Shown here one piece after another: positions 5,886 to 33,688 of a stretch of 33,688 bases of DNA. How positions within the stretch are numbered: the first letter of the stretch is position 1; each line of letters begins with the position of its first letter. The notes under the pieces were generated by a model, which had not been told where the DNA came from, ran no database searches, and worked only from the letters and a program-made list of their open reading frames with translations. The DNA comes from a virus (lineage: Duplodnaviria; Caudoviricetes): positions 1 to 33,688 of IMG/VR virus record IMGVR_UViG_3300032884_000230; one strand, written 5' to 3'. Position numbers and translations under genes: made by a program.

Positions 5886-8204
5886 ATGGCATTTCCTCCA
5901 GATTTAGTTTATCCGTATAGTTATGATTCTGATCATACATTATATAAAGTGTATAATACTACAGAATCTAAACTGTCTTCTGATAATCAAGCATGGGCAA
6001 GTGAAATTGATATTGTTCCAGTTACAACTTATGAAGTTTGGCCTAATAGTGGATTTGCAACTTTAGAAGGTGAAATTATTTATTATGATTCTGTTGCTAA
6101 AAATGATGCTGGATTTGTAATAAAATTAAGAAGATGTGGAAGAAATTTAGGGGGAAATAAAACAAGATTTAATGTAGCTGGAACTTGGATTCGTGGTTTT
6201 GTTATGGCAGAACATCATAATAAAATTGTTGATGCAATTATCAACCTTGAAGATTACGTTTTAAGTCTTGATGAAATGATTGCAGGATTACAAAATGAAC
6301 CAATATGTATTGATGATGGTGGCTGTACATCTGTTAATTTTGATTTTGAAACATCTTTACCAAATGCATGTTTAGGGGTTGATGCTATTTATAATGTTAA
6401 TATTACAGGGAATTATACAACAGCAAAAGTAGATTTTGGAGATGGAAATACAACTAATGTATTATCTGGAACTCATACTTATAGTCAAAATTCTACTATT
6501 GATCCAGTAGTTACTGTAGAAAATGCATTATGTACAGTAATTCAAACAGAAACAGATAGAGATGACACTAATAATTGGACGCCATATTCACCTCCTCCAC
6601 AATCACCGTATATTGAAACCTGTCAAATTCCAGATATTCCTCCTTTTGTAATTCCTACTTTTGTACCACCTACTGGTTTTGCTACACCACAAATTACTAG
6701 TCCATGTATTGATTTTACACCATTTAATTTTGCATTAAGTATTCCAAAAATTTTAATAAGTATTCCAAGTATTAAATTTCCAAATATTAAATTAATAGTA
6801 CCTAGCATACCAAATATTAGTATGATTGTACCTAGCATACCAAATATTAGTTTGATTGTTCCTAGCATAATGCCAATTAGTTTTATTGGTAGTTTTAGTG
6901 GATATCTTCCAAGTATTATTAGTTTTGGACCTGTTAATATACCAAGTGTTATTGAATTTGGACCTGTTAATATACCAACTATCATTCCAATTATTGCTCC
7001 ACTTGGTTGGGCTGCACCGCCATGGAATATTAATATGATTGCACCACCCAACTGGCAATGGAAAATTACAATTGATGGTCCAGTTCCTCCACTTCCAAAT
7101 CCTATTCAAATACAAGGTCCAGAGCCTAAAATTCCTTCAGTTATTACTGTTCAAGGAAATATTGTTTCTGTTATTTCAATAGTTGGTTGTTCGTTAACAA
7201 ATATAAGTGTAGTTGGATTAAGAGATATAACAATGTCGGTAGTTGGATTAAGTAATACAACAATGCAAGTAGTGGGATTGAGTAATACAACAATGCAAGT
7301 AGTGGGATTGAGCAATACAACCATACAAGTTATTGGATTAAGCAATACAACTATATCAGTTATTGGATTAAGAGATACAACAATGTCAGTTGTAGGCTTA
7401 AGAGATACAATAATGCAAGTTGTAGGATTAAGAGATACAATAATGTCAGTTGTAGGATTAAGTAATGCAATTATTTCTGCTGTTGGTCTTGATGGACATT
7501 CTATTTCTGTAACTGGGATGCCTGCAACTATTGCTGTTACTGGTATGCCTTCTGCTTTAACTGTTAATTGGGGAGTAGTTCCTAGTATTAATGTGAATTG
7601 GGGCAGTTGTTCTTGTGCTATTACAGTTTCTTGTGCAAATACTCCTGCTCCTGCTCCTGCTCCTTTTACTAATTTAGCAGATTTTTCAGATGGTTTAAAT
7701 TTAAATGCTTCTTTAGAGTCAAATGAAATTGGAATTCCTTCTGAAATTACGGTGTTGTTTCCAGAAGAACTGCCAAAATTTCAAATAGAAATACCAAAAA
7801 TTCCAGACATTGTTATGAGATTAGAAAAACCACTACCTACAGAAATTAAAATTACAGGTGTTCCAGAATCAATTAGATTAGATACTACAAATATGCCAAA
7901 TTCAATTAAATTAGATGCAACATCATTACCTGAGGCTATTTATCTTATTGCTCAAGATGTTCCTTCTATTATTACTGTTGATGGATCAGATATACCAAGA
8001 ACAATTAAAGTAGAAGGAATTCCGCAGGTAATTGAGCTTAAAGCCCCAGATTCAATTGCATTAAGATTGCCAGAAAATTTTGAAATACCATTAGTTTTTA
8101 AAGGAGATCCAATTCCAGTTCGTTTTGATATTTCTAATTTTAATGGAACGGCTTCTGAATCTCCAAGATTTGTTATTCTCCCCGCCCCTTGCCCTCAAGC
8201 ATGA
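5886..8204 (+). CDS. Virion fibre/spike-like protein with a PKD-like domain and Pro/Ile and VVGL repeats (paralog 3)
   Basis: VDFGDGNT..HTY; shared N-terminal module; long low-complexity repeat stalk. Confidence 0.7.
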   Translation: MAFPPDLVYPYSYDSDHTLYKVYNTTESKLSSDNQAWASEIDIVPVTTYEVWPNSGFATLEGEIIYYDSVAKNDAGFVIKLRRCGRNLGGNKTRFNVAGTWIRGFVMAEHHNKIVDAIINLEDYVLSLDEMIAGLQNEPICIDDGGCTSVNFDFETSLPNACLGVDAIYNVNITGNYTTAKVDFGDGNTTNVLSGTHTYSQNSTIDPVVTVENALCTVIQTETDRDDTNNWTPYSPPPQSPYIETCQIPDIPPFVIPTFVPPTGFATPQITSPCIDFTPFNFALSIPKILISIPSIKFPNIKLIVPSIPNISMIVPSIPNISLIVPSIMPISFIGSFSGYLPSIISFGPVNIPSVIEFGPVNIPTIIPIIAPLGWAAPPWNINMIAPPNWQWKITIDGPVPPLPNPIQIQGPEPKIPSVITVQGNIVSVISIVGCSLTNISVVGLRDITMSVVGLSNTTMQVVGLSNTTMQVVGLSNTTIQVIGLSNTTISVIGLRDTTMSVVGLRDTIMQVVGLRDTIMSVVGLSNAIISAVGLDGHSISVTGMPATIAVTGMPSALTVNWGVVPSINVNWGSCSCAITVSCANTPAPAPAPFTNLADFSDGLNLNASLESNEIGIPSEITVLFPEELPKFQIEIPKIPDIVMRLEKPLPTEIKITGVPESIRLDTTNMPNSIKLDATSLPEAIYLIAQDVPSIITVDGSDIPRTIKVEGIPQVIELKAPDSIALRLPENFEIPLVFKGDPIPVRFDISNFNGTASESPRFVILPAPCPQA
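6780..6985 (+). repeat. In-frame tandem repeats: 30-nt (IVPSIPNISx x3) and 33-nt (FGPVNIP x2)
   Basis: gtacctagcataccaaatattag repeated; tttggacctgttaatatacca repeated. Confidence 0.9.
7209..7478 (+). repeat. Nine 30-nt in-frame tandem repeats (V-V/I-G-L-SN/RD-T-T/I-M/I-Q/S)
   Basis: Units start every 30 nt from 7209 to 7449; degenerate copies continue to about 7600. Confidence 0.95.
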
Positions 8205-8235
8205 TAATTTTGTTTAATTTAAACTAAATTATAGA

Positions 8236-9099
8236 ATGATAATTAAGAAACATAAAAATAGAAATGAATATGTCCTAACATCTGATGGTATTTGGGTTAG
8301 AAATTTTTGCAAACAAGATGTTAGTTCAATTGATGTTAATAGTTTTCTTAATGAAGAAGAATATCATTGCATTTTAAATAATGAGTTTGAAAATAATAAA
8401 TTAAACTTTAATCAATCTTATCAAACAATACAATTTCCTAATATAATTATTGTATCTGATGGTTATGATTTTATTAATAAACAAAAAATATTATCTAAAT
8501 TGCCATATAAAGAAGTTGCTATTTTTGCTGTTAATGGAGCACTAAGAGATTGGAAATTAGTAGGAAAAAATTGTACAAATGATATGAAAAGATCTATTGA
8601 TTGGTTTATAGTTAATAATCCGTATCCAGAATGTAAAAAATTTCTTCCTAAAAACCATTCTTATTATCCACGTTGTTTAGCATCTTCACGAACAAATTCA
8701 GAATTTATAAAACAATATCAAGGAGATGTTGTTTTATATCAACCATCTTCTGATGAAAATTATTCTGGTGTATTTTATGGTATTGAAAAATCCATTGATG
8801 ATTATAGAAATCCTATATGTGCCGCTATATCTTTAGCATATCGTTTTGGTGTTAAAAAATTAGGGTTATTTTGTTGTGATAATTCATTTATTGATGAAAG
8901 GCCATCAGCAGAAAAGTTAGACAATGGACTTTGGTGTTATCCTCAACATAAAATATCACAACGAGTAATTGATGCAAATTTATATTGGTTGTCTCAAAAT
9001 AATATAAAAATTTTTGATTGTTCTAGTGGAGAAAAATACGAACATGCTTCATACATATCAATAGATGAAATTTCAATTTTTTTTAAAGATGACAAATAA
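8236..9099 (+). CDS. Divergent Maf/DUF115/CstII-like (GT-A variant) protein
   Basis: IIIVSDG..AIFAVNGAL..AAISLAYRFGVKKLGLFCCD resembles the IxxxGPS..N..A..LAxxMGxxxIxLxGxD pattern, with GPS altered. Confidence 0.5.
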   Translation: MIIKKHKNRNEYVLTSDGIWVRNFCKQDVSSIDVNSFLNEEEYHCILNNEFENNKLNFNQSYQTIQFPNIIIVSDGYDFINKQKILSKLPYKEVAIFAVNGALRDWKLVGKNCTNDMKRSIDWFIVNNPYPECKKFLPKNHSYYPRCLASSRTNSEFIKQYQGDVVLYQPSSDENYSGVFYGIEKSIDDYRNPICAAISLAYRFGVKKLGLFCCDNSFIDERPSAEKLDNGLWCYPQHKISQRVIDANLYWLSQNNIKIFDCSSGEKYEHASYISIDEISIFFKDDK

Positions 9100-12244: not shown

Positions 12245-12469
12245 ATGGTTGTAATAACAAAAAAACCAACAATTCAAACAATAGTCAAAACAGTTGGTGG
12301 AGAATGCAGTGTTAAAATTGAATTAGACATAAATATTAATTTAAATCAAAATGAATTATCTATTTCTGCAAATCATGTAGAAAAAAAAGAAGAAAACGAA
12401 GCTACACTTTGGACAATTCCTGATTTTGATAGTGCTGAAATACTTCAATTTGGAAAAGAGGAGAAATAA
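12245..12469 (+). CDS. Hypothetical protein
   Basis: 74-aa ORF, SD AAGGT; TATAAATA (T4 late promoter consensus) at 12215-12222. Confidence 0.7.
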   Translation: MVVITKKPTIQTIVKTVGGECSVKIELDININLNQNELSISANHVEKKEENEATLWTIPDFDSAEILQFGKEEK

Positions 12470-13191
12470 TGAGTATTGGAATTTATGGTATTAAAAATAC
12501 AATAAATAACAAGATTTATATTGGACAATCTATACACATTTATAGACGTTTTACAGAACATCGCCGTGAATTAAATAAAGGCATACACAAAAATGTACAT
12601 CTTCAAAGAGCATGGAATAAATATAGACAAAATAATTTTGAGTTCTTTATACTCTTAGAATGTGATATTTCTCAATTAAACATAATGGAAGAACAACAAG
12701 CCAATCAAGTACCTAATGGATTGTTATATAATATAAATAATAATTTTACTTCATGTATAGGAATGAAAAATCCTTTTTTTGGAAAGAAACATAGTAAAAA
12801 ATCCAAAAATAAAATGAGTGAATGGAAAAAAGAACATTATAATGGTAAAAATAATCCAAATTATGGGAAAAAACAACCACTTTCTGTGCGATTGGCAATG
12901 ACAAACAATAATTCATGCACTAAATTAAAAGCTGAAGATGTGTTAATTATTGTTAATTTACTGAAATCTTATGTGTTACATGAAATTATTGCTCAAAGGT
13001 TTAAAGTATCAAGAACGGTTATTACAAGAATTTCTAACGGTACTCGTTGGCAAAATATCACTGGTGGTCCTGTTTTTCCAATAATATATAAATATGGAGT
13101 TAGACAATTTTCTGAAGATCATCGTAATAAAATTGGCAATTCGCATAGAGGTAAAAAATATAAAACTAAGGAGAATTTATGTCTGGAATAG
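12469..13191 (+). CDS. GIY-YIG homing endonuclease with NUMOD3-like repeats and HTH
   Basis: GIYGIKN..KIYIGQS..RR..EH; catalytic E and LYN; NPFFGKKHSKKSKNKMS; IAQRFKVSRTVITRI HTH. Confidence 0.93.
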   Translation: MSIGIYGIKNTINNKIYIGQSIHIYRRFTEHRRELNKGIHKNVHLQRAWNKYRQNNFEFFILLECDISQLNIMEEQQANQVPNGLLYNINNNFTSCIGMKNPFFGKKHSKKSKNKMSEWKKEHYNGKNNPNYGKKQPLSVRLAMTNNNSCTKLKAEDVLIIVNLLKSYVLHEIIAQRFKVSRTVITRISNGTRWQNITGGPVFPIIYKYGVRQFSEDHRNKIGNSHRGKKYKTKENLCLE

Positions 13192-14219
13192 GTGCGGATA
13201 TTGGGACGTACAATTTGGTTCTTTGTAAAAGGGATGAAGAAGGAAAATTTATCTATAAAAAAGAAATAAATGCTTTTTTAGAAATACCAATTGATGATGA
13301 TAATCGATTTGTATTTAATATGATGAAAAATGCTGAACTTTCTGCTGGGAGAAAAGTTCCAATAATTGAAAATAAAGAGGAAAAAATAGCTTATGTTATG
13401 GGCGAAGCAGCTATTAATATGGCTTATGCTATTAATAAATTAGAAGTTAAACGACCAATGAAAGATGGATGTTTAAATCCTAAAGAAAAAAGCGCTCAAC
13501 AAATAATGAACAAAATGGTTCATGGAATGATTGGAACATGTTCTCCAAATGAAACACTTTATTTTAGCAAACCAGCAAATGCCATTAATGAAGAAACAGA
13601 TGCAGATTATCATGCTAAAGTTTTAGAAGCTATTTTTAAAGCATTCAAAGATAAAGACGGAAATAAAGTGAAGCCTCATCCAATTAATGAAGGATTAGCT
13701 TTAGTTTATGCTGAATTAACTGAAAAACAATGGACGGGTTGTGGCGTATCCCTCGGAGGCGGGATGGTAAATGTTTGTTTTGCCATTTATGGAAATCCTA
13801 TTTTTGAATTTTCTTTAGTAAATGCTGGTGATTATATAGATAAAATGGCAGCAAAAGCTACTGGAGAATCTTCAACATATGTTAATAAAGAAAAATTAAA
13901 ATTAGATTTAACTATAGATTCTACTGTATTAGTTCAAAGAGCACTTAAAGCTCAATATGAATTAATGGTTCAAAAAACAGTTCTAGGAATAAAAAAAGGA
14001 TTAGAACAATCTGAAAGTAAAATAAGGGCAGACAACCCCATTGATATTGTAATTGCTGGTGGTACAAGTTGTCCCAATGGATTTGATATATTATTTAGAA
14101 ATATAGTTGCACAATCTGGATTGCCACTTCCTATTGGTAGTATTATTAGACCATCAGATCCACTTTTCTCAGTAAGTCGTGGATGCTTAATTGCTGCCGA
14201 AGCTGCAAATAAATCTTAA
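13179..14219 (+). CDS. Actin-like ATPase (MreB/ParM/FtsA superfamily)
   Basis: Phosphate-1 IGADIGTYN, connect-1 INEGLA, phosphate-2 VSLGGGMVN, adenosine IAGGTS, connect-2 VSRGCLIAA; SD AAGGAG. Confidence 0.9.
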   Translation: MSGIGADIGTYNLVLCKRDEEGKFIYKKEINAFLEIPIDDDNRFVFNMMKNAELSAGRKVPIIENKEEKIAYVMGEAAINMAYAINKLEVKRPMKDGCLNPKEKSAQQIMNKMVHGMIGTCSPNETLYFSKPANAINEETDADYHAKVLEAIFKAFKDKDGNKVKPHPINEGLALVYAELTEKQWTGCGVSLGGGMVNVCFAIYGNPIFEFSLVNAGDYIDKMAAKATGESSTYVNKEKLKLDLTIDSTVLVQRALKAQYELMVQKTVLGIKKGLEQSESKIRADNPIDIVIAGGTSCPNGFDILFRNIVAQSGLPLPIGSIIRPSDPLFSVSRGCLIAAEAANKS

Positions 14220-23786: not shown

Positions 23787-23804
23787 GATAAAGTATATAG
23801 TTAT

Positions 23805-24266: not shown

Positions 24267-25613
24267 TTAACTAATAAATGTTCTTAATAATTTGTTATTT
24301 GTAACTTCCCACATAGTATCTGGTCCCGGACCAATACTTTCAATAGATGTTACACACATTTGAGCAGCTTTAATAATTTCTTCATCGGTTGGTACAATTT
24401 CATGAATTAAATTTCCAAATTGATCGAATTCATAATATTTTCCTGCTGCCACCTCTATTTCGCAACTTGATAAATCATAACCTTTAATAAACATTGCTTT
24501 AATATTGTTTGGTTCTGTAATATGATCTGATAGTTTTAAAGTTCTAATTTCGTTTATAACGACAACTTCTGTTTGTCCAATTTTTGTAGTTATTCCCTTT
24601 TCAATTTGATTTGTCATGTCTTTTTTAGACGTTTGTGTTAATGATTTAATTACAGGTGATAATATTTTACGTTTAACAAATACCTTATTCATTATATCAT
24701 GATACTTGCTTCCTTCTGCCGCATCAATAGCTAACATGCTTTTTGCTAATGCTTCGTGCAACCTAACTGTGGCTGGAATTGTTAAAATGGCTTTAGCAAA
24801 ACAAGTAAAAGAAAAATCACGAGCTTTCTTTAAAGCATCCATTTTGCTTAATCCATTAGCTACTTCTTTTTCATATATTTCTATTAATATTTCATACCAA
24901 ACACCAGTAATTAATCTTCCAAAACTATGACATTCACTTGATAATTGATCATCAGGTGCCCATGATGGCAAATCTTCTGGTGCTTTAAAAACAAAATCAT
25001 TAATAGCGTTTCTTAATCCATTAAGGTTGTCTTCTCTGTTTCCTTGAGAGTGATAAATTGCATCTCCCATTTCTTCTGCCAATCTAGAAAGAACATTAGA
25101 TAATCTTAAATTGCCATTGGTTTCTTTTAATGCTTTTTCTAATGCTAAATCTGAATGCATTATTGTATTTATAGCAGTAATATCTGAATAACCTTCATGA
25201 ATTGCCCATACTTCTAATCCTTGAGTGTTCCAAAAATCTGGACGACAAGCATCTAACACTCCATGTCCTAGTTCATGAGTTACAACTTCTGATGAATTAG
25301 CAGCACAAACCATTTGTTTAGTTATAGGATTTTCTTTAAAAAAGAACTTAAGAGACTTTCTATCATAAAAAGCATTAAAATCACGTCCTGCTTTTGGATA
25401 AATTTCTAAATTACTTGTAGCAGCCCATTTTAATATAGGTAAAAATGTACTTAAATCATTAATAGCAATATCCAAAGAAGTTTTGCAATTAATGGCTTCT
25501 TGATCTTCTCCATTACAACCTTTAATAGTAAATGGAAAATTAGGACTGGATATAGTTGGAACAATGTCAACAAATAAATCGGGTGTCGAAGGATCGTTAA
25601 TTTGATATTTCAT
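24267..25613 (-). CDS. Thermolysin/fungalysin-like zinc metallopeptidase (gluzincin)
   Basis: NAFY, VVTHELGH (HExxH), third ligand HEGYSD (ExxxD), ECH; no signal peptide evident. Confidence 0.88.
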   Translation of the reverse strand: MKYQINDPSTPDLFVDIVPTISSPNFPFTIKGCNGEDQEAINCKTSLDIAINDLSTFLPILKWAATSNLEIYPKAGRDFNAFYDRKSLKFFFKENPITKQMVCAANSSEVVTHELGHGVLDACRPDFWNTQGLEVWAIHEGYSDITAINTIMHSDLALEKALKETNGNLRLSNVLSRLAEEMGDAIYHSQGNREDNLNGLRNAINDFVFKAPEDLPSWAPDDQLSSECHSFGRLITGVWYEILIEIYEKEVANGLSKMDALKKARDFSFTCFAKAILTIPATVRLHEALAKSMLAIDAAEGSKYHDIMNKVFVKRKILSPVIKSLTQTSKKDMTNQIEKGITTKIGQTEVVVINEIRTLKLSDHITEPNNIKAMFIKGYDLSSCEIEVAAGKYYEFDQFGNLIHEIVPTDEEIIKAAQMCVTSIESIGPGPDTMWEVTNNKLLRTFIS

Positions 25614-28023: not shown

Positions 28024-29892
28024 ATGGATTCAAATGCATTAAACATCCCAGAACATGTTATATGTCCTGATTTAAAATTTATTTCACAAAATAAACCTTC
28101 TTTTTATTATCAACATAAGAAGGTAAAAGATATAGTACAATCACCAGAATGGAAAATATATAGTCAATTCTATAATTTTGATAAATATGAATTAGAAATT
28201 GATATTACTGAAACTGACGACAGTAAAGAAAAATATGATCGAGCAAGACAAGAAATAGAATTTGAAAAATGTGTCAGAAGTTTTTCTTATTTTTGTCACA
28301 AATATGTTAAAATATTTCACCCAATGGATGGGCTGATTCCATGCATTTTATATGGATATCAAAGAACTGTAATAAAACAATATGAAAATAAAAAGAAAAG
28401 ATTTAACATTCTTTCTAAATTTCGTCAGGGGGGATTGACTACAACTGCTGTTTTGTGGGCATTATGGCGTTGTATGTTTAAAACAGATCAAAAAATTCTA
28501 TTAGTATCTAAAACTGACCGTGAAGCTATTGATGCTGGTGAAATTAGTCGTAGAGCTTTAGAAAATCTTCCTGCTTGGTTAAAACCAATAATGGATGCGT
28601 CAAGCAAACATGAAAAAATATTTAAAGAAACTGGTTCTCAATTAAATTTTTATACTCCAGAAGCGGCTCGTGGTAAAGCTTGTACAGTCATTATTGTAGA
28701 TGAAGCTGCGTTTATTGATAATATGGAAACTCACTGGGCTGCTATTTTCCCAGTTATTTCTACTGGCGGTGCATGTGTTATTATTTCTACAGTTAATGGA
28801 CTTGGAAATTGGTATGAAGAAACTTATCATTTAGCCGAAGCTAATCAAAACCCATTTAATGTAATTCAAATTGATTACTGGGAACATCCTGATTATTGTG
28901 ATCCAAAATGGGCTGCTGAAATGCGTGCTAATCTTGGAGAACGACGCTGGCAACAAGAAATTTTAAGAAATTTCCTTGGGTCTGGTGAGACTTATATTCC
29001 AGCACATATTATTACTGAATTAATTGATCAAACTAGATATAAAATGCCTTTGCGTATTTTAATGCCTAAATGGTGTAATAGAAATGAAATGCAACATGAT
29101 TGGGAAAAAGGAGCATTGTGGATTTGGAAAGAACCTTATGATGGACATGAATATATAATAGGAGCGGATTGTGCTGAAGGTATTAGCGATGGAGGTGATA
29201 ATAGTGCTTTTCAAGTTCTTGATATGGAAACTTTAGAACAAGTAGCAGAATTTTATAGCAATAGTATAACTCCTAATAATTATGCACAAGTCTTAGAACA
29301 AATAGGAAGATATTATAATACCGCTTTGGTTATTATTGAAACAAATGGAGTTGGAAGTGCTGTAGCTAGTGCTTTACAACTTGGATTAGGATATGATAAT
29401 CTTTATTTTGCAGGAAATAATTCTGATAAATCTGGAGTTAAAATAGGTCAAAATAATAGAAATGTTTATTTAGAATCTATACAAAATAGATTGTTGGCTG
29501 GAACTTTAACCATAAATAGTATACGTTTGGTTCATGAATTAAAAACATTTATTTATCATCGACAACATAAACGGGCAGAAGCTTTAAAAGGAAAACATGA
29601 TGATGCAATTTTATCAATGTGCTCGGCTCTTATGACGAGAGATGCATTAATTCATGACCTGCCTGTTGGGATGGGAGTGCCAGAAGAAACAACAAAAGTT
29701 TTTAAATCTGATGTGTATGAAGAAATTAGACAAGAAATTCTCAGAGGCTCACCAGAAGATTTGTTTGGAGGTGAAGACGAATTGTTGATGCCCTTTATGG
29801 ACTTCGATGATAGCAATGATGGCGGAGGAGCAGGATTGGTCTACGAAGATAGTAGACGAAATAGTTGGATCTTAAAAGAATTTTCGTGGTAG
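28024..29892 (+). CDS. terL: Terminase large subunit (T4 gp17-like)
   Basis: LYGYQ, KFRQGGLTT Walker A variant, IIVDEAAF Walker B, ISTVNG, nuclease IGADCAEG..D.SA and HDDAILS. Confidence 0.96.
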   Translation: MDSNALNIPEHVICPDLKFISQNKPSFYYQHKKVKDIVQSPEWKIYSQFYNFDKYELEIDITETDDSKEKYDRARQEIEFEKCVRSFSYFCHKYVKIFHPMDGLIPCILYGYQRTVIKQYENKKKRFNILSKFRQGGLTTTAVLWALWRCMFKTDQKILLVSKTDREAIDAGEISRRALENLPAWLKPIMDASSKHEKIFKETGSQLNFYTPEAARGKACTVIIVDEAAFIDNMETHWAAIFPVISTGGACVIISTVNGLGNWYEETYHLAEANQNPFNVIQIDYWEHPDYCDPKWAAEMRANLGERRWQQEILRNFLGSGETYIPAHIITELIDQTRYKMPLRILMPKWCNRNEMQHDWEKGALWIWKEPYDGHEYIIGADCAEGISDGGDNSAFQVLDMETLEQVAEFYSNSITPNNYAQVLEQIGRYYNTALVIIETNGVGSAVASALQLGLGYDNLYFAGNNSDKSGVKIGQNNRNVYLESIQNRLLAGTLTINSIRLVHELKTFIYHRQHKRAEALKGKHDDAILSMCSALMTRDALIHDLPVGMGVPEETTKVFKSDVYEEIRQEILRGSPEDLFGGEDELLMPFMDFDDSNDGGGAGLVYEDSRRNSWILKEFSW

Positions 29893-29929: not shown

Positions 29930-30244
29930 ATGAAAAACAAAGAAATTAAGTTTTATATCGAACAAGCAATAAGAAAATTGCCCACAAATGATGCAAATGG
30001 TGTAAAATATTGTCTAAAAAAAGCAATAACTCTTTTAAATCAATCCGAAACTCAAGAAATAGTTCCAGTTGCTAAAAAAATCAATGAACAATATGATTTT
30101 CAAACTATAAATAATACAACTAATGCTAAAAAAGTGATGGTTGGACTTGATTGTATGATTGAACAAGAAAAAAATAAATTAGAAGAAATTTTAAATAGAA
30201 AGAAGAAAAAAGATGATGAAAACGTGGAACAAATTTTTGGATGA
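29930..30244 (+). CDS. Hypothetical protein
   Basis: 104-aa helical ORF; TATAAATA at 29918-29925 just upstream. Confidence 0.7.
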   Translation: MKNKEIKFYIEQAIRKLPTNDANGVKYCLKKAITLLNQSETQEIVPVAKKINEQYDFQTINNTTNAKKVMVGLDCMIEQEKNKLEEILNRKKKKDDENVEQIFG

Positions 30245-30758
30245 AAAAGAAAATAATGATCACGATTTTTCATCAACTCAAATAAATCTGCCTAAAAAAT
30301 TGGCTGATGAAATAATAGCCTGGGGTCGTGAACATATTCCTAATTCGTTTTTGTATAATAACGATAAAGGTAGAGAAAATGAAATTCATGTAACGGCTCT
30401 ATACGGACTTAGAGATAAAAAACCAGATAAAGTTAAAGAAGTTTTAAAAGATCAAAAATCAGTAAAATTAAAATTAGGTAAAATTAGTGCGTTTATCGAT
30501 AATGGAGAATATGATGTAATTAAAATTGATGTAAATAGTCCTAATTTACATAAATTACATAAATTATTAAAATCATTGCCACATTGTGATTCCCATCCAA
30601 AATATATTCCACATGTTACTCTTGCTTATGTTAAAAAAGGAAAAGGAAAAAGAATTATTGGAAATGGAATTTTTGATGGAGAAATAATCGAATCAGATAA
30701 ACTAACCTTTAATTCTTTTAATGGAGAAAAAACCGAAATTAAATTAACCAAAGGATGA
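30213..30758 (+). CDS. 2H phosphoesterase, Acb1 (T4 57B)-like
   Basis: Two HxT motifs: IHVTALYG and YIPHVTLAY; size and spacing of the LigT/Acb1 family. Confidence 0.88.
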   Translation: MMKTWNKFLDEKENNDHDFSSTQINLPKKLADEIIAWGREHIPNSFLYNNDKGRENEIHVTALYGLRDKKPDKVKEVLKDQKSVKLKLGKISAFIDNGEYDVIKIDVNSPNLHKLHKLLKSLPHCDSHPKYIPHVTLAYVKKGKGKRIIGNGIFDGEIIESDKLTFNSFNGEKTEIKLTKG

Positions 30759-30759
30759 T

Positions 30760-30843
30760 ATGATTGATTTAATTGTCTTGATTATAGGAATACCATTATT
30801 TATAATTTTAGTATTTTATGCTTTAACTAGGAAAAAAATATGA
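30760..30843 (+). CDS. 27-aa single-pass membrane peptide (not in ORF track)
   Basis: MIDLIVLIIGIPLFIILVFYALTRKKI*; AAGGA at 30751-30755; exactly fills the gap; stop overlaps the next ATG (ATGA). Confidence 0.65.
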   Translation: MIDLIVLIIGIPLFIILVFYALTRKKI

Positions 30844-31547
30844 GTGTCGCAGGTTATGTTACTTTATCTACTCCTTATTTTGGATTACAAAAAATAAATT
30901 GGTTTTATGAAAATAAACCAAATGAGCGATTTTTAGTTTATTGTTGGGATTTTTCTAAAAATGATTTCACTCTAAGTTGGGCTTATGATATTAAAAAAAT
31001 TAAAATAGAAAAAACAATTAGAGTTAAATTAGACGATGGATCTTCTTTTGTAACCAATCCAGATCATAAAGTGTTGTTAAGAACTAATGAATGGAATGAA
31101 ATAAAAAACCTTGATTTTGGAGATCATTTATTGGCTTTTAATAAATTAAAACCAAATATTCATTTTAATGCAAGTTTAAAAACAAAACAATTTCCAAGAA
31201 TTTATACACATACTCATGGATGGAAAAATGAACGACAATTTATTGATGAATGGCGAACTAATACAATAAAAGATGAAGATAAAAAACAATATTTTATTAA
31301 TAAAATAGTATCAGAAAATTTGCCAATTAAAGAATTGTGTAGAATTCTAGAAATGGATGTCATTACATTAAAAAGTAAAATAAAACGAGCAGGATATTCT
31401 ATAAAAGAATTAAACCAACTTGGAAAAGAAACAGATTATAGAAGAATTATTGGCGTTGAAGCATGGAAAGAAGTTGATGTATACACCTTGTCTGTAGAAA
31501 AACATATGAATTTCTGCGTAGAATCTGTAGTGCTAATTTCTAATTAA
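30840..31547 (+). CDS. Free-standing intein/Hint-domain protein without exteins
   Basis: Block A SVAGYVTLSTPYFG from residue 2, block B VTNPDHKVL, LDFGDHL, block F VDVYTLSVEKHMNF, block G VVLISN-stop. Confidence 0.85.
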   Translation: MSVAGYVTLSTPYFGLQKINWFYENKPNERFLVYCWDFSKNDFTLSWAYDIKKIKIEKTIRVKLDDGSSFVTNPDHKVLLRTNEWNEIKNLDFGDHLLAFNKLKPNIHFNASLKTKQFPRIYTHTHGWKNERQFIDEWRTNTIKDEDKKQYFINKIVSENLPIKELCRILEMDVITLKSKIKRAGYSIKELNQLGKETDYRRIIGVEAWKEVDVYTLSVEKHMNFCVESVVLISN

Positions 31548-32129
31548 TTTCAAATTTAATTGATTAAATAAATAAAAATATTGCTCGTAATAATCTTCTG
31601 CTTGCTGCCTAATAATATAAGGAACATCATCATCTTTGTTCTTTATAAATAAATCTGGCTCTGATAGCAAGGGTTCTTTTAATTCTAAATATTGATCAAT
31701 TAAATCTAATCCCTTTCCATCCGCTAAATTGTTCCAAGTAAGAAAAACAGCACCAGGAGTTTGATGTGCCATTTCATACAAACGACGTAATCTAAAACAA
31801 TAATAATTAAAGCCCGTTTCTGGTGTGTAATGATATTTAGATATTAATTCGTTCATTGTATCCGTTCCAGATCGAATACAATAAATAAACTTCAAACAAG
31901 AATAAAGAGATTTGTTTGAAAAATTAATATTAAAAAGAATGTGATCTCCAAAAATCGCAGCAGAATTGTTTAATTTGTGCTTGTTAGATTTTAAGGATTC
32001 AAGATCGCTTATTCCTTCGTAAATTATATTAGATTCTGATACCTGAATTCTTTCGTTTTTATTCAGAATCTTAATTAATTCAGAAGAACCAGATGCTAGA
32101 TGACTAGTAATAAGAACTATTCTGTTCAT
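31533..32129 (-). CDS. Divergent sulfotransferase-fold (P-loop) protein
   Basis: LITSHLASGSSELIKILNKN ~ 5'-PSB xxRSGTT.L..L; KFIYCIR ~ 3'-PB KxIxxxRxP; key residues altered. Confidence 0.6.
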   Translation of the reverse strand: MNRIVLITSHLASGSSELIKILNKNERIQVSESNIIYEGISDLESLKSNKHKLNNSAAIFGDHILFNINFSNKSLYSCLKFIYCIRSGTDTMNELISKYHYTPETGFNYYCFRLRRLYEMAHQTPGAVFLTWNNLADGKGLDLIDQYLELKEPLLSEPDLFIKNKDDDVPYIIRQQAEDYYEQYFYLFNQLNLKLIRN

Positions 32130-32207
32130 ATTTTAAAAAAATTATTACCTTTTAACCACTAACTATATTAGTATGGCAAAAATATTCTGTAAAATATAGG
32201 AATGAAT

Positions 32208-33688
32208 ATGGCAGTTTGGGATTCTTTATATAAAATTTGGAATTATTCTTTTGAACTTGACCCACTAGAAAAAAGGGCAAAAAGAGATATTACTGGTGCT
32301 GGTGTTACCCTTCCTGATGCTATGCCACAACCAGGACAAGATGGAAGTATGACTGGTGGCGGAAGGGGATCGGTTAGGCTAAGAGATAGTAAAGATTTTA
32401 TTGACCTTTCTACTATCACTAATCGTTCTTCAAGATATAAAGAATATGAACGCTTGAGAAATGTGCCTGAAATTGAAATGGCTATGGAAATCTATGCTGA
32501 TGAAGCTTGTCAAATTGGTGAAAATGGACATATTTTTGATGTCGTTATTGATAATGAATTCGTTAAAGAAGAATTAGAATGGTTGTTTTTTCATCGTAGA
32601 ATGTTAAATTTAGATGATCCTACTGTTGGATGGAATTTAGTTAAAAAATTATTCATATTTGGAGATCATTTTTCTGAATTGCTTATGAACCCAGAAAATC
32701 CTAAAGATGGCATTATTGGTATGACGGATCTTCCCTGTGAATCTATGTACCGAATTGAAACCACTAAAGGTAAATTAATAGAATTTCAACAGTCTAATGA
32801 AGGACCAGATTATCAAAGCTTAACTCGTGCCCCAGTTACACAAGCTACAGAATCTGAAATAATGCAAACAACTGCAATTAGATTTACAGCAGAACAAATT
32901 ATACATTGGAGAGTTGGTGATGAAAGAAAAACATTCTATCCGTATGGTGTAAGCTTAGTTGAAGCAGCAAGAGGACCAGCACATCAACTTCGCCTTATGG
33001 AAGATGCAATGGTGGTATACAGGCTAACACGCGCGCCTGAGAGACGGGTGTTTTACATTGACGTAGGCACTTTATCTCCAGCTAGAGCAGAAGCATTTGT
33101 TGATCGTATTAAATCCCAATTTAGAAAAAGAAAAATTACTTCAAATCAAAGTGGAGGAAAAACAGGAGCTTCGGCAGTTGATGAAAGATGGCATCCACCT
33201 TCTCAGGATGAAGATTACTGGTTGCCAACTCGTCCTCAGTCAAATACAAAAATAGATACGTTGCCAGGTGCTCAGAATCTTGGGGAAATTGACGACGCTT
33301 TATATTTTAGAAACAAGCTTTTTACAGCATTAAAATTCCCCAAAAGTTATTTTTCTAATGAAGATGTGCAAACTACAAGAATTAGTTTGTCTGCTCAAGA
33401 TGTAAAGTTTGCAAGAATTATTGAAAGATTACAAGCTCACGTTGCTGCTGGATTTATGCAATTAGCAGAAAGACACTTACAACTTCTTGGTGTTCCAGAA
33501 GATGATTATAAAGATTTGAAAATAAAAATGACTCCACCTTCTGATTGGCGTGAATTAACACGTCAAGAAATAGTTACAGCACGTATTTCTAATGCTAATA
33601 GCTTAAAAGGCTCTATGATTATGTCTGACTTTGATATTTCTACAAAAATTATGAAATATAGCGAAGATGAAACAGAAGAAATGCAAGC
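32208..33688 (+). CDS. Portal protein (T4 gp20-like), 3' truncated by the window
   Basis: Translated by hand: MAVWDSL..PEIEMAMEIYADEAC..QLRLMEDAMVVYRLTRAPERRVFYIDVG..EDYWLP..IDTLPGAQNLGEIDD; SD TAGGA. Confidence 0.96.
   Translation, partial: MAVWDSLYKIWNYSFELDPLEKRAKRDITGAGVTLPDAMPQPGQDGSMTGGGRGSVRLRDSKDFIDLSTITNRSSRYKEYERLRNVPEIEMAMEIYADEACQIGENGHIFDVVIDNEFVKEELEWLFFHRRMLNLDDPTVGWNLVKKLFIFGDHFSELLMNPENPKDGIIGMTDLPCESMYRIETTKGKLIEFQQSNEGPDYQSLTRAPVTQATESEIMQTTAIRFTAEQIIHWRVGDERKTFYPYGVSLVEAARGPAHQLRLMEDAMVVYRLTRAPERRVFYIDVGTLSPARAEAFVDRIKSQFRKRKITSNQSGGKTGASAVDERWHPPSQDEDYWLPTRPQSNTKIDTLPGAQNLGEIDDALYFRNKLFTALKFPKSYFSNEDVQTTRISLSAQDVKFARIIERLQAHVAAGFMQLAERHLQLLGVPEDDYKDLKIKMTPPSDWRELTRQEIVTARISNANSLKGSMIMSDFDISTKIMKYSEDETEEMQ

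Follow-up and report, generated by a model that had tools for sequence, protein, structure and literature searches.

A free-standing gene derived from a portal intein in the packaging cluster of a megaphage family

A gene in the packaging cluster of a megaphage encodes an intein without exteins, and this free intein descends from an endonuclease-less intein that is almost fixed inside the portal protein of the same phage family. The genomes of this megaphage family measure roughly 500–600 kb, two records rated complete having 511 and 527 kb and GenBank LR756511.1 595 kb; a search for a cultured member found none. The portal intein has no nuclease core and has been set free repeatedly, and its free copies have lost the catalytic residues of splicing and have selectively retained the leader segment of a former HNH endonuclease. 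The reading that we favour, with modest confidence, is that the free gene is a domesticated portal intein serving as a DNA-binding late factor. It likely supplies a protein that the phage needs and that its relatives make by splicing from a portal precursor.

The stretch of DNA that was analysed (the window) is a viral fragment of 33,688 nucleotides. The initial annotation took the whole open reading frame to be an intein, and this is borne out. The Pfam profile Intein_splicing (PF14890) matches the free protein at an E value of 7.6e-11, above the curated cut-off, its AlphaFold model has a pLDDT of 92, and solved inteins are found in all top matches listed when this model is compared with the PDB by Foldseek (best 6frg, E 1e-8), the Hint fold thus being recovered by both profile search and structure prediction. 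Consistently, a structure search of BFVD with the free protein matches intein-bearing viral proteins. PHROGs holds no family for it. Because an in-frame stop lies 4 codons 5' of the ATG (the stop-to-stop frame has 238 codons) and TAA directly follows Asn235, the gene has neither an N- nor a C-extein, as had been proposed, and a second genome, L008, has the same layout. Read-through of TAG under an alternative code would give an N-extein, but terL itself ends in TAG and the 2H phosphoesterase gene occupies that place in L008, so this reading was rejected. In the alignment, Ser2 takes the nucleophile position of block A, Thr216 stands in place of the block F Asp, and the C-terminus reads ISN instead of HN, the last two in agreement with the earlier reading of Asp to Thr and penultimate His to Ser. 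Block B had been read as T72-x-x-x-H76; H76 is confirmed, but the motif is T-x-x-H and its Thr aligns to Asn73, so block B is N73-x-x-H76 and the Thr is lost. Judged by its motifs, the free gene appears not to be a functional class 1 intein, having no exteins and an incomplete catalytic set. It is not a split intein either, both Hint halves lying in one reading frame and the portal gene being continuous across the site. BIL and Hedgehog Hint domains are fused to other domains that they process; the free gene is not of this kind, as it has no flanking domain and its nearest relatives are portal inteins.

The gene order is terL, a 104-aa ORF, the 2H phosphoesterase gene, a 27-aa ORF, the intein gene, a minus-strand gene for a 198-aa protein with a sulfotransferase fold, and the portal gene (Table 1). 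A place between terminase and portal had been claimed for the intein gene; it does lie within the packaging cluster, but it adjoins neither gene, since the 104-aa ORF, the 2H gene, the 27-aa ORF and the sulfotransferase-fold gene intervene. The ATGA overlap behind the claimed translational coupling is with the 27-aa ORF in the window and with the 2H gene in L008. The terminase and portal genes are free of inteins in the window, as stated earlier, portal over the 495 codons present. The sequence TAACTA occurs 9 times on the plus strand of the window, two of these copies lying just 5' of the free gene and of the portal gene. Across the megaphage family, 67 of the 110 sequences 5' of portal contain it, vs about 6 in shuffles. 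The motif suggests that the free gene and the portal gene may be expressed late. A further TAACTA, a candidate late-promoter motif of the family, lies at window position 23798 on the minus strand, and a scan of the sequence for sigma-70 promoters and terminators remained at chance level. Several other features of the locus and the window are recorded here. The 2H phosphoesterase (30213–30758) matches the Acb1 (anti-CBASS) and 2'-5' RNA ligase families and is found near portal in 28 of 88 loci whose portal carries the intein (filled loci), and the sulfotransferase-fold gene lies divergently upstream of portal in 75 of these 88. Elsewhere, the window encodes an actin-like protein at 13179–14219 (Pfam Volactin, E 2e-62, in a megaphage), an IS605-type TnpB at 107–1324, a free-standing GIY-YIG/NUMOD3 endonuclease at 12469–13191 and, on the minus strand at 24267–25613, a 448-aa protein with a HELGH zinc-metalloprotease-like motif and a weak Peptidase_M4 match (E 0.07).

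Table 1. Features of the free-standing intein gene and its surroundings, in window coordinates
Feature	Position	Strand	Basis
Free-standing extein-less intein gene, 235 aa, degraded splicing motifs	30840..31547	+	ORF, Pfam, AlphaFold, Foldseek, alignment
N-terminal Hint half, residues 1-100; Ser2 at the Cys1 position, block B N73-x-x-H76	30840..31139	+	
Leader beta-hairpin and helix, residues 113-140; HNH endonuclease remnant; best-conserved part of free copies	31176..31259	+	
HTH-like helical domain, residues 141-198; variable sequence, fold kept	31260..31433	+	
C-terminal Hint half, residues 199-235; Thr216 replaces block F Asp, ISN-stop end	31434..31547	+	
Large terminase (terL), intein-free	28024..29892	+	
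2H phosphoesterase (Acb1 / 2'-5' RNA ligase-like); directly coupled to the free gene in L008	30213..30758	+	
27-aa hydrophobic ORF; stop overlaps the intein-gene ATG (ATGA); absent in L008	30760..30843	+	
Sulfotransferase-fold gene; usual portal-upstream neighbour (75/88 filled loci)	31533..32129	-	
Portal gene (Portal_T4), runs off the window end; no intein in the 495 codons present	32202..33688	+	
Empty intein site DEA|CQ in the T4-like portal gene; insertion point before 32508	32499..32513	+	
TAACTA, putative late-promoter-like motif, 16 nt 5' of the free-gene ATG	30824..30829	+	
TAACTA 5' of portal	32160..32165	+	

An artefact of assembly or gene calling, by which a frameshifted fragment of an intein-bearing portal would be mistaken for a gene, is largely refuted and is given almost no credence. 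The window record is a 33.7-kb fragment on a single metagenomic contig, rated about 7% complete, and frameshifted contigs do exist in the megaphage family, as in L215, where portal and intein at 6600–8800 contain several frameshifts throughout, probably as sequencing errors. However, in L008 the genes follow the same order, the free gene (55% identical) is coupled to the 2H stop and the portal is empty. In another run (X1), contigs from a related strain span 30524–30946 and 31494–31653, bridging both ends of the free gene, though none spans the whole gene; misassembly is therefore unlikely. Furthermore, no portal match flanks the free gene, and both termini as well as internal catalytic residues are changed. 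In related strains from runs X1 and X2, low-depth contigs carry a 9–10-nt insertion at window 30827–30832 that repeats the ribosome-binding-like stretch TAGGAAAAA immediately 5' of the free gene; the 10-nt form of the insertion would shift the 27-aa ORF.

The closest relatives of the free protein are inteins embedded in portal proteins. All 113 longer homologs from one protein search are T4-like portals with the same intein at DE[AST]|C near residue 100, which answers the homology question raised at the outset. From the collected proteins and loci, 306 distinct embedded copies of 228–241 aa were extracted with Cys1 and the last Asn as cut points, so these two residues are not independent evidence. 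The block-B Thr and His, the block-F Asp and the penultimate His, none of which was used for extraction, are each intact in all 306. The insert has roughly 100 residues, and none of the 306 copies carries an HNH core motif. At its start it matches the leader found in HNH-bearing inteins of remoter large-phage proteins, with 50 matching segments spread over 46 proteins and 43 of these segments lying in portal-like ones. Its end is similar to the helical tail that some of these HNH-bearing inteins have. On these grounds the insert is an HNH endonuclease that lost its core and in which new residues were fixed. The earlier description of an HNH-leader-like remnant without a core is thus upheld. 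The model of the insert folds as a hairpin and helices. A putative HTH-like segment, likewise suggested before, is in line with a fold search (VIA) in which HTH regulators are the top matches, albeit weak ones (Z 4–5 over 45–60 residues), and with weak HTH Pfam matches in a minority of 35 members. A search of the ESM Atlas with the insert gave a best score of 0.78 and no usable lead, and a PDB sequence search with the insert profile returned nothing informative.

Neither the embedded nor the free form shows signs of an active endonuclease. Because out-of-frame endonucleases have been reported in phage inteins, in the accessible part of 10.1101/2025.01.02.630785, alternative frames of the embedded copies were inspected; no frame is consistently open in 121 DNA copies, and a hidden out-of-frame endonuclease was rejected. 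The free gene, with no core motif in 306 embedded relatives and no such frame, is not an HNH homing endonuclease. Pfam gives no LAGLIDADG match in the free protein, whose insert has 100 residues and whose reading frame ends at block G. The embedded intein also occurs, with intact Cys1 and His-Asn|Cys ends and without an endonuclease, in two other hosts known from protein sequence. One, P0230, is homologous to the sulfotransferase-fold protein encoded beside portal, and the other, P0227, is small and rich in Cys; a scan with P0230 for its DNA context found nothing. A second insert site of the portal, at residues about 276–283, holds roughly 400 aa in L002, L009, L013, L026, L029 and L105. It is filled in 10 of 75 loci found with the intein query and in 0 of 38 found with the portal query, and some such portal proteins have LAGLIDADG Pfam matches. 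The patchy filling of this second site is that of an ordinary mobile intein and contrasts with the fixation of the intein at DEA|C.

Pattern scans of IMG/VR count about 170 filled sites vs 1 empty site in the megaphage family, as loci rather than species, many loci being redundant and records close to the window possibly missing from the data. The filled-site pattern listed 120 loci (about 170 estimated), 119 of them with portal and intein and 1 ending early. The first empty-site DNA pattern gave 2 matches, the L008 contig and a chance match (L192), and a second, independent one gave 21, comprising the L008 contig, 7 distant portals and 13 without a portal match; together the two empty-site patterns would catch 300 of the 306 known flanks. 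An empty-site scan of GTDB returned 27 matches, none of them a portal. Queries with intein-less portals favour empty alleles, yet few were found: of 124 viral loci, the 80 best comprise 76 filled ones, 4 that end before the site and no empty one, and among the best 120 of 1600 portal proteins 115 have the intein and 5 do not. In the 7 distant T4-like portals (32–38% identity) the site is empty, and the available DNA of their loci contains no intein of this kind, so any need for the intein would be specific to the megaphage family. Comparison of trees indicates that the embedded intein has largely co-diverged with the portal and is mostly inherited vertically. The intein and portal trees share 52 of 156 splits vs 0.2 under shuffling, with a Mantel r of 0.44, and 19 of 31 well-supported intein splits are found in the portal tree, 4 conflicting with it.

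A selfish or defensive action at the DNA level would have the protein bind the portal site, shielding it from the free-standing HNH or GIY-YIG homing endonucleases of co-infecting relatives or guiding them. Such an action would suit the descent of the insert from DNA-binding parts of a homing endonuclease, and also the spread of the intein, its splice ends intact, to the host genes of P0227 and P0230; collaborative and trans homing occur in T4-like phages according to the part of PMC2988022 available. But inheritance is mostly vertical, only 3 of 44,551 pairs resemble recent intein transfer, and empty target sites are almost absent from the megaphage family. This explanation is very unlikely.

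Empty portals fall in two lineages of the portal tree. The window's empty portal nests among filled portals beside P0014, P0015 and P0131, and the same three are sister to the free genes of the window's clade in the intein tree, so the free gene derives from the portal of its own lineage. The DEA|C site of the portal (32508), named as a plausible origin in the initial annotation, is accordingly supported by portal inteins as homologs, by the agreement of both trees and by the empty site here. The second empty portal, P0134, groups with P0104, P0136, P0056 and L029, as do the free proteins P0231 and P0011. Putative pairings come from equal lengths of the longest contig, 4730 bases for empty P0134 and free P0371 (a cluster-mate of P0231), 74526 bases for empty P0129 and free P0005, and 9772 bases for P0004 and a terL of the window's cluster; the trees agree with the presumed P0005/P0129 and P0371/P0134 pairs. 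Both empty-portal loci that were read as DNA, the window and L008, hold a free gene, and they count as one event because they belong to one lineage. By comparison, each of 9 large filled-portal records searched whole holds exactly one copy, in the portal frame, and among 215 loci scanned only the frameshifted contig L215 has two insert matches. Precise loss of the intein from portal has happened two or more times, in each case apparently alongside a free copy. Cys codons mark the two ends of the embedded intein, with 2–5 nt of microhomology (119 junctions), which would make a precise deletion possible.

Free-standing homologs amount to 12 proteins, so the free gene is not confined to a single genome. 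Eight of them form the window's clade (support 100/100), whereas P0009, P0011, P0229 and P0231 are placed apart, every one of them beside other embedded inteins. Five changes are needed on the intein tree, and a single origin of the free copies is rejected (p-AU 1e-6), with trees of 38 rows and of 90 rows, the larger having an unsettled bootstrap. P0009, P0011 and P0229 are known from protein sequence alone. A scan with P0011 for DNA context gave 32 loci, the best at 46% identity and its own contig not among them, and a metagenome scan for free or relocated copies in DNA gave 26 loci, all embedded. All 12 free proteins are without Cys1 and the His-Asn end, the block-B His is replaced by Gln in 9, the block-F Asp survives in 5, and none has the full catalytic set. 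Because catalytic residues are lost in every free lineage, the earlier idea of a trans-acting catalytic Hint protein is unsupported. The 12 proteins keep the Hint core and the core of the leader motif QF.R...W..ER.F.D.W, the residues retained in every one being Q117, F118, P119, R120, W128, E131, R132, D136, W138, G185, E190 and L194. In the window's clade the leader is 85% identical and the HTH part 49%; over all 12 proteins the values are 75% and 36%, respectively.

Between the window and L008, dN/dS of the free gene is about 0.2 for residues 101–140, about 0.5 for the gene and about 0.9 for the HTH part, compared with 0.10–0.26 for the terL, portal, 2H and sulfotransferase-fold genes, all rough NG86 values from one AT-rich pair. 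The proposal that the intein was kept as a separate gene stands, since unbroken homologs are present in five lineages and the leader is under purifying selection. The free genes of the window and L008 share 54–55% identity at 87% portal identity, while for embedded pairs from equally distant portals the median is 69% and the 5th percentile 62%. The free copies are clearly relaxed, evolving faster than the embedded ones, and a strictly unchanged role for them is therefore disfavoured. The relaxed rate and the near-neutral HTH would suit a relic, in which the mini-intein is fixed only as its precise deletion is rare, the insert is kept because folding requires it and the free genes are duplicates in slow decay. 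Inteins at essential sites are lost by precise deletion only, as put in the portion of PMC2988022 consulted, and protein searches find intact ORFs only, which biases them toward intact copies. However, the window's clade comprises 8 intact ORFs of 232–236 aa with about 60% mutual identity, although dS in neighbouring genes is near 1. Furthermore, catalytic residues were selectively lost and the leader kept five times, and the Cys-codon microhomology at the intein ends and the two or more precise losses, apparently with a free copy present, speak against a mere relic. It is judged unlikely.

The preferred reading, a domesticated DNA-binding late factor, may be set out as follows. The ancestor of these megaphages carried the intein at the portal DEA|C site, with a remnant of an HNH endonuclease, a leader hairpin plus an HTH-like domain, as its insert. 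The excised intein would be set free one-for-one with portal subunits, late in infection, and would bind DNA via its HTH and its basic leader hairpin, with Arg120 and Arg132 as invariant residues. It may act as a late regulator or a packaging-linked DNA factor, with the Hint fold as a scaffold. A local duplication probably gave rise to the free gene; a precise deletion between the two flanking Cys codons would then have removed the portal copy, and the free gene would replace the excised intein where the portal lost its copy. A more tentative proposal, which we hold somewhat less probable, is that the intein was domesticated while still embedded. The portal would then be an obligatory two-product polyprotein that releases an essential DNA-binding factor, and it would shed its intein only after a move-out, either to a free, splicing-dead gene (five times) or to another host (twice).

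DNA binding is the most likely activity of the excised or free intein, by analogy with HNH enzymes, because the protein is basic and its hairpin is positioned like the DNA-reading sheet beside the HNH core. According to the available portion of PMC3384342, DNA is recognised by the antiparallel sheet next to this core, and WhiA and SMAD MH1 are descendants that no longer act as nucleases; I-TevI doubles as a repressor in the corresponding portion of PMC2988022. A DNA-binding regulator, as the initial annotation suggested, is a plausible candidate role. The dN/dS of about 0.9 in the HTH part is a poor fit to a conserved DNA target. A search for an I-TevI-like operator 5' of portal found none, the homing-site halves matching there at 11.7 of 18 positions vs 11.5–11.6 in the controls (112 loci). 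A domesticated intein might instead have a protein-binding job, as a factor that chaperones or helps to assemble portal, terminase or prohead, or as a virion part that comes free together with the portal. This is rather unlikely. It would accord with the co-production of intein and portal in filled genomes, with the position of the free gene in the packaging cluster behind the same TAACTA upstream motif, and with a leader conserved as a surface while the HTH sequence drifts. But the parts retained are the DNA-recognising parts of an HNH endonuclease, and the protein is basic (pI about 9) with invariant Arg residues. Predicting the free protein in complex with residues 60–495 of portal gave a score of 0.00 and bears neither way.

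The free gene resembles several known systems in part. The class 1 portal inteins at DE[AST]|C (P0014, P0015 and P0131; LR756511.1) have the same length, the Hint fold and the leader and HTH insert; P0014, P0015 and P0131 are 49–52% identical to the free gene and its sister group in the intein tree. In contrast to these, the free gene has its own start and stop and no exteins, and Cys1, the block-B Thr, the block-F Asp and the His-Asn end are lost. The HNH-bearing portal inteins of other large phages (P0245, P0262, P0294 and others) have the same leader G-W-x-x-E-H...A-E-W, and some have a C-terminal HTH-like segment ending in GF. However, they keep the HNH core and are much longer, and the megaphage family has fixed ER for EH and D for A. 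The yeast HO and WHO elements, as described in the accessible text of PMC7282813, are like the free gene intein-derived, independently expressed, without exteins and without splicing. In that text, HO and WHO keep an active LAGLIDADG nuclease and have an added zinc finger, whereas the free gene is nuclease-less and holds an HNH-derived remnant. Moreover, unlike HO and WHO, it seems to stand in for an embedded copy, which almost every relative has retained. The free gene is therefore a free-standing intein-like gene but not an HO/WHO element, having no LAGLIDADG domain and no C-terminal zinc finger. WhiA/DUF199 and SMAD MH1 (PMC3384342) and I-TevI autorepression (PMC2988022) are, in the excerpts available, cases where parts of homing endonucleases serve DNA binding or regulation without cutting. 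These have no Hint domain and are not delivered by protein splicing, and for the free gene DNA binding is only presumed. Taken by analogy, the free gene is most like HO in origin and most like WhiA or I-TevI in proposed activity. In Jug phages, the available part of 10.1101/2025.08.10.669567 counts Intein_splicing Pfam matches of huge phages among stand-alone genes and describes them as insertions between gene fragments such as nrdD, without characterisation in that part. A literature search, thin in its coverage of subscription papers, found no description of the megaphage family or of such a free gene. What is distinctive is the family-wide fixation of an endonuclease-less embedded form together with its repeated, apparently compensatory liberation.

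The persistence of inteins without a homing endonuclease is a long-standing question, for which conditional splicing as a stress sensor has been proposed (PMC4760082, from the portion at hand). The megaphage family offers repeated natural experiments that part splicing from the excised protein: the splicing residues were dropped five times and the leader was kept, and the portal lost its intein where a free copy is seen or presumed. If the proposed role is true, an excised intein can itself be the selected product, here a small soluble protein in which two invariant arginines are named. The free gene would also point to an uncharacterised late or packaging factor in phages of 500–600 kb.
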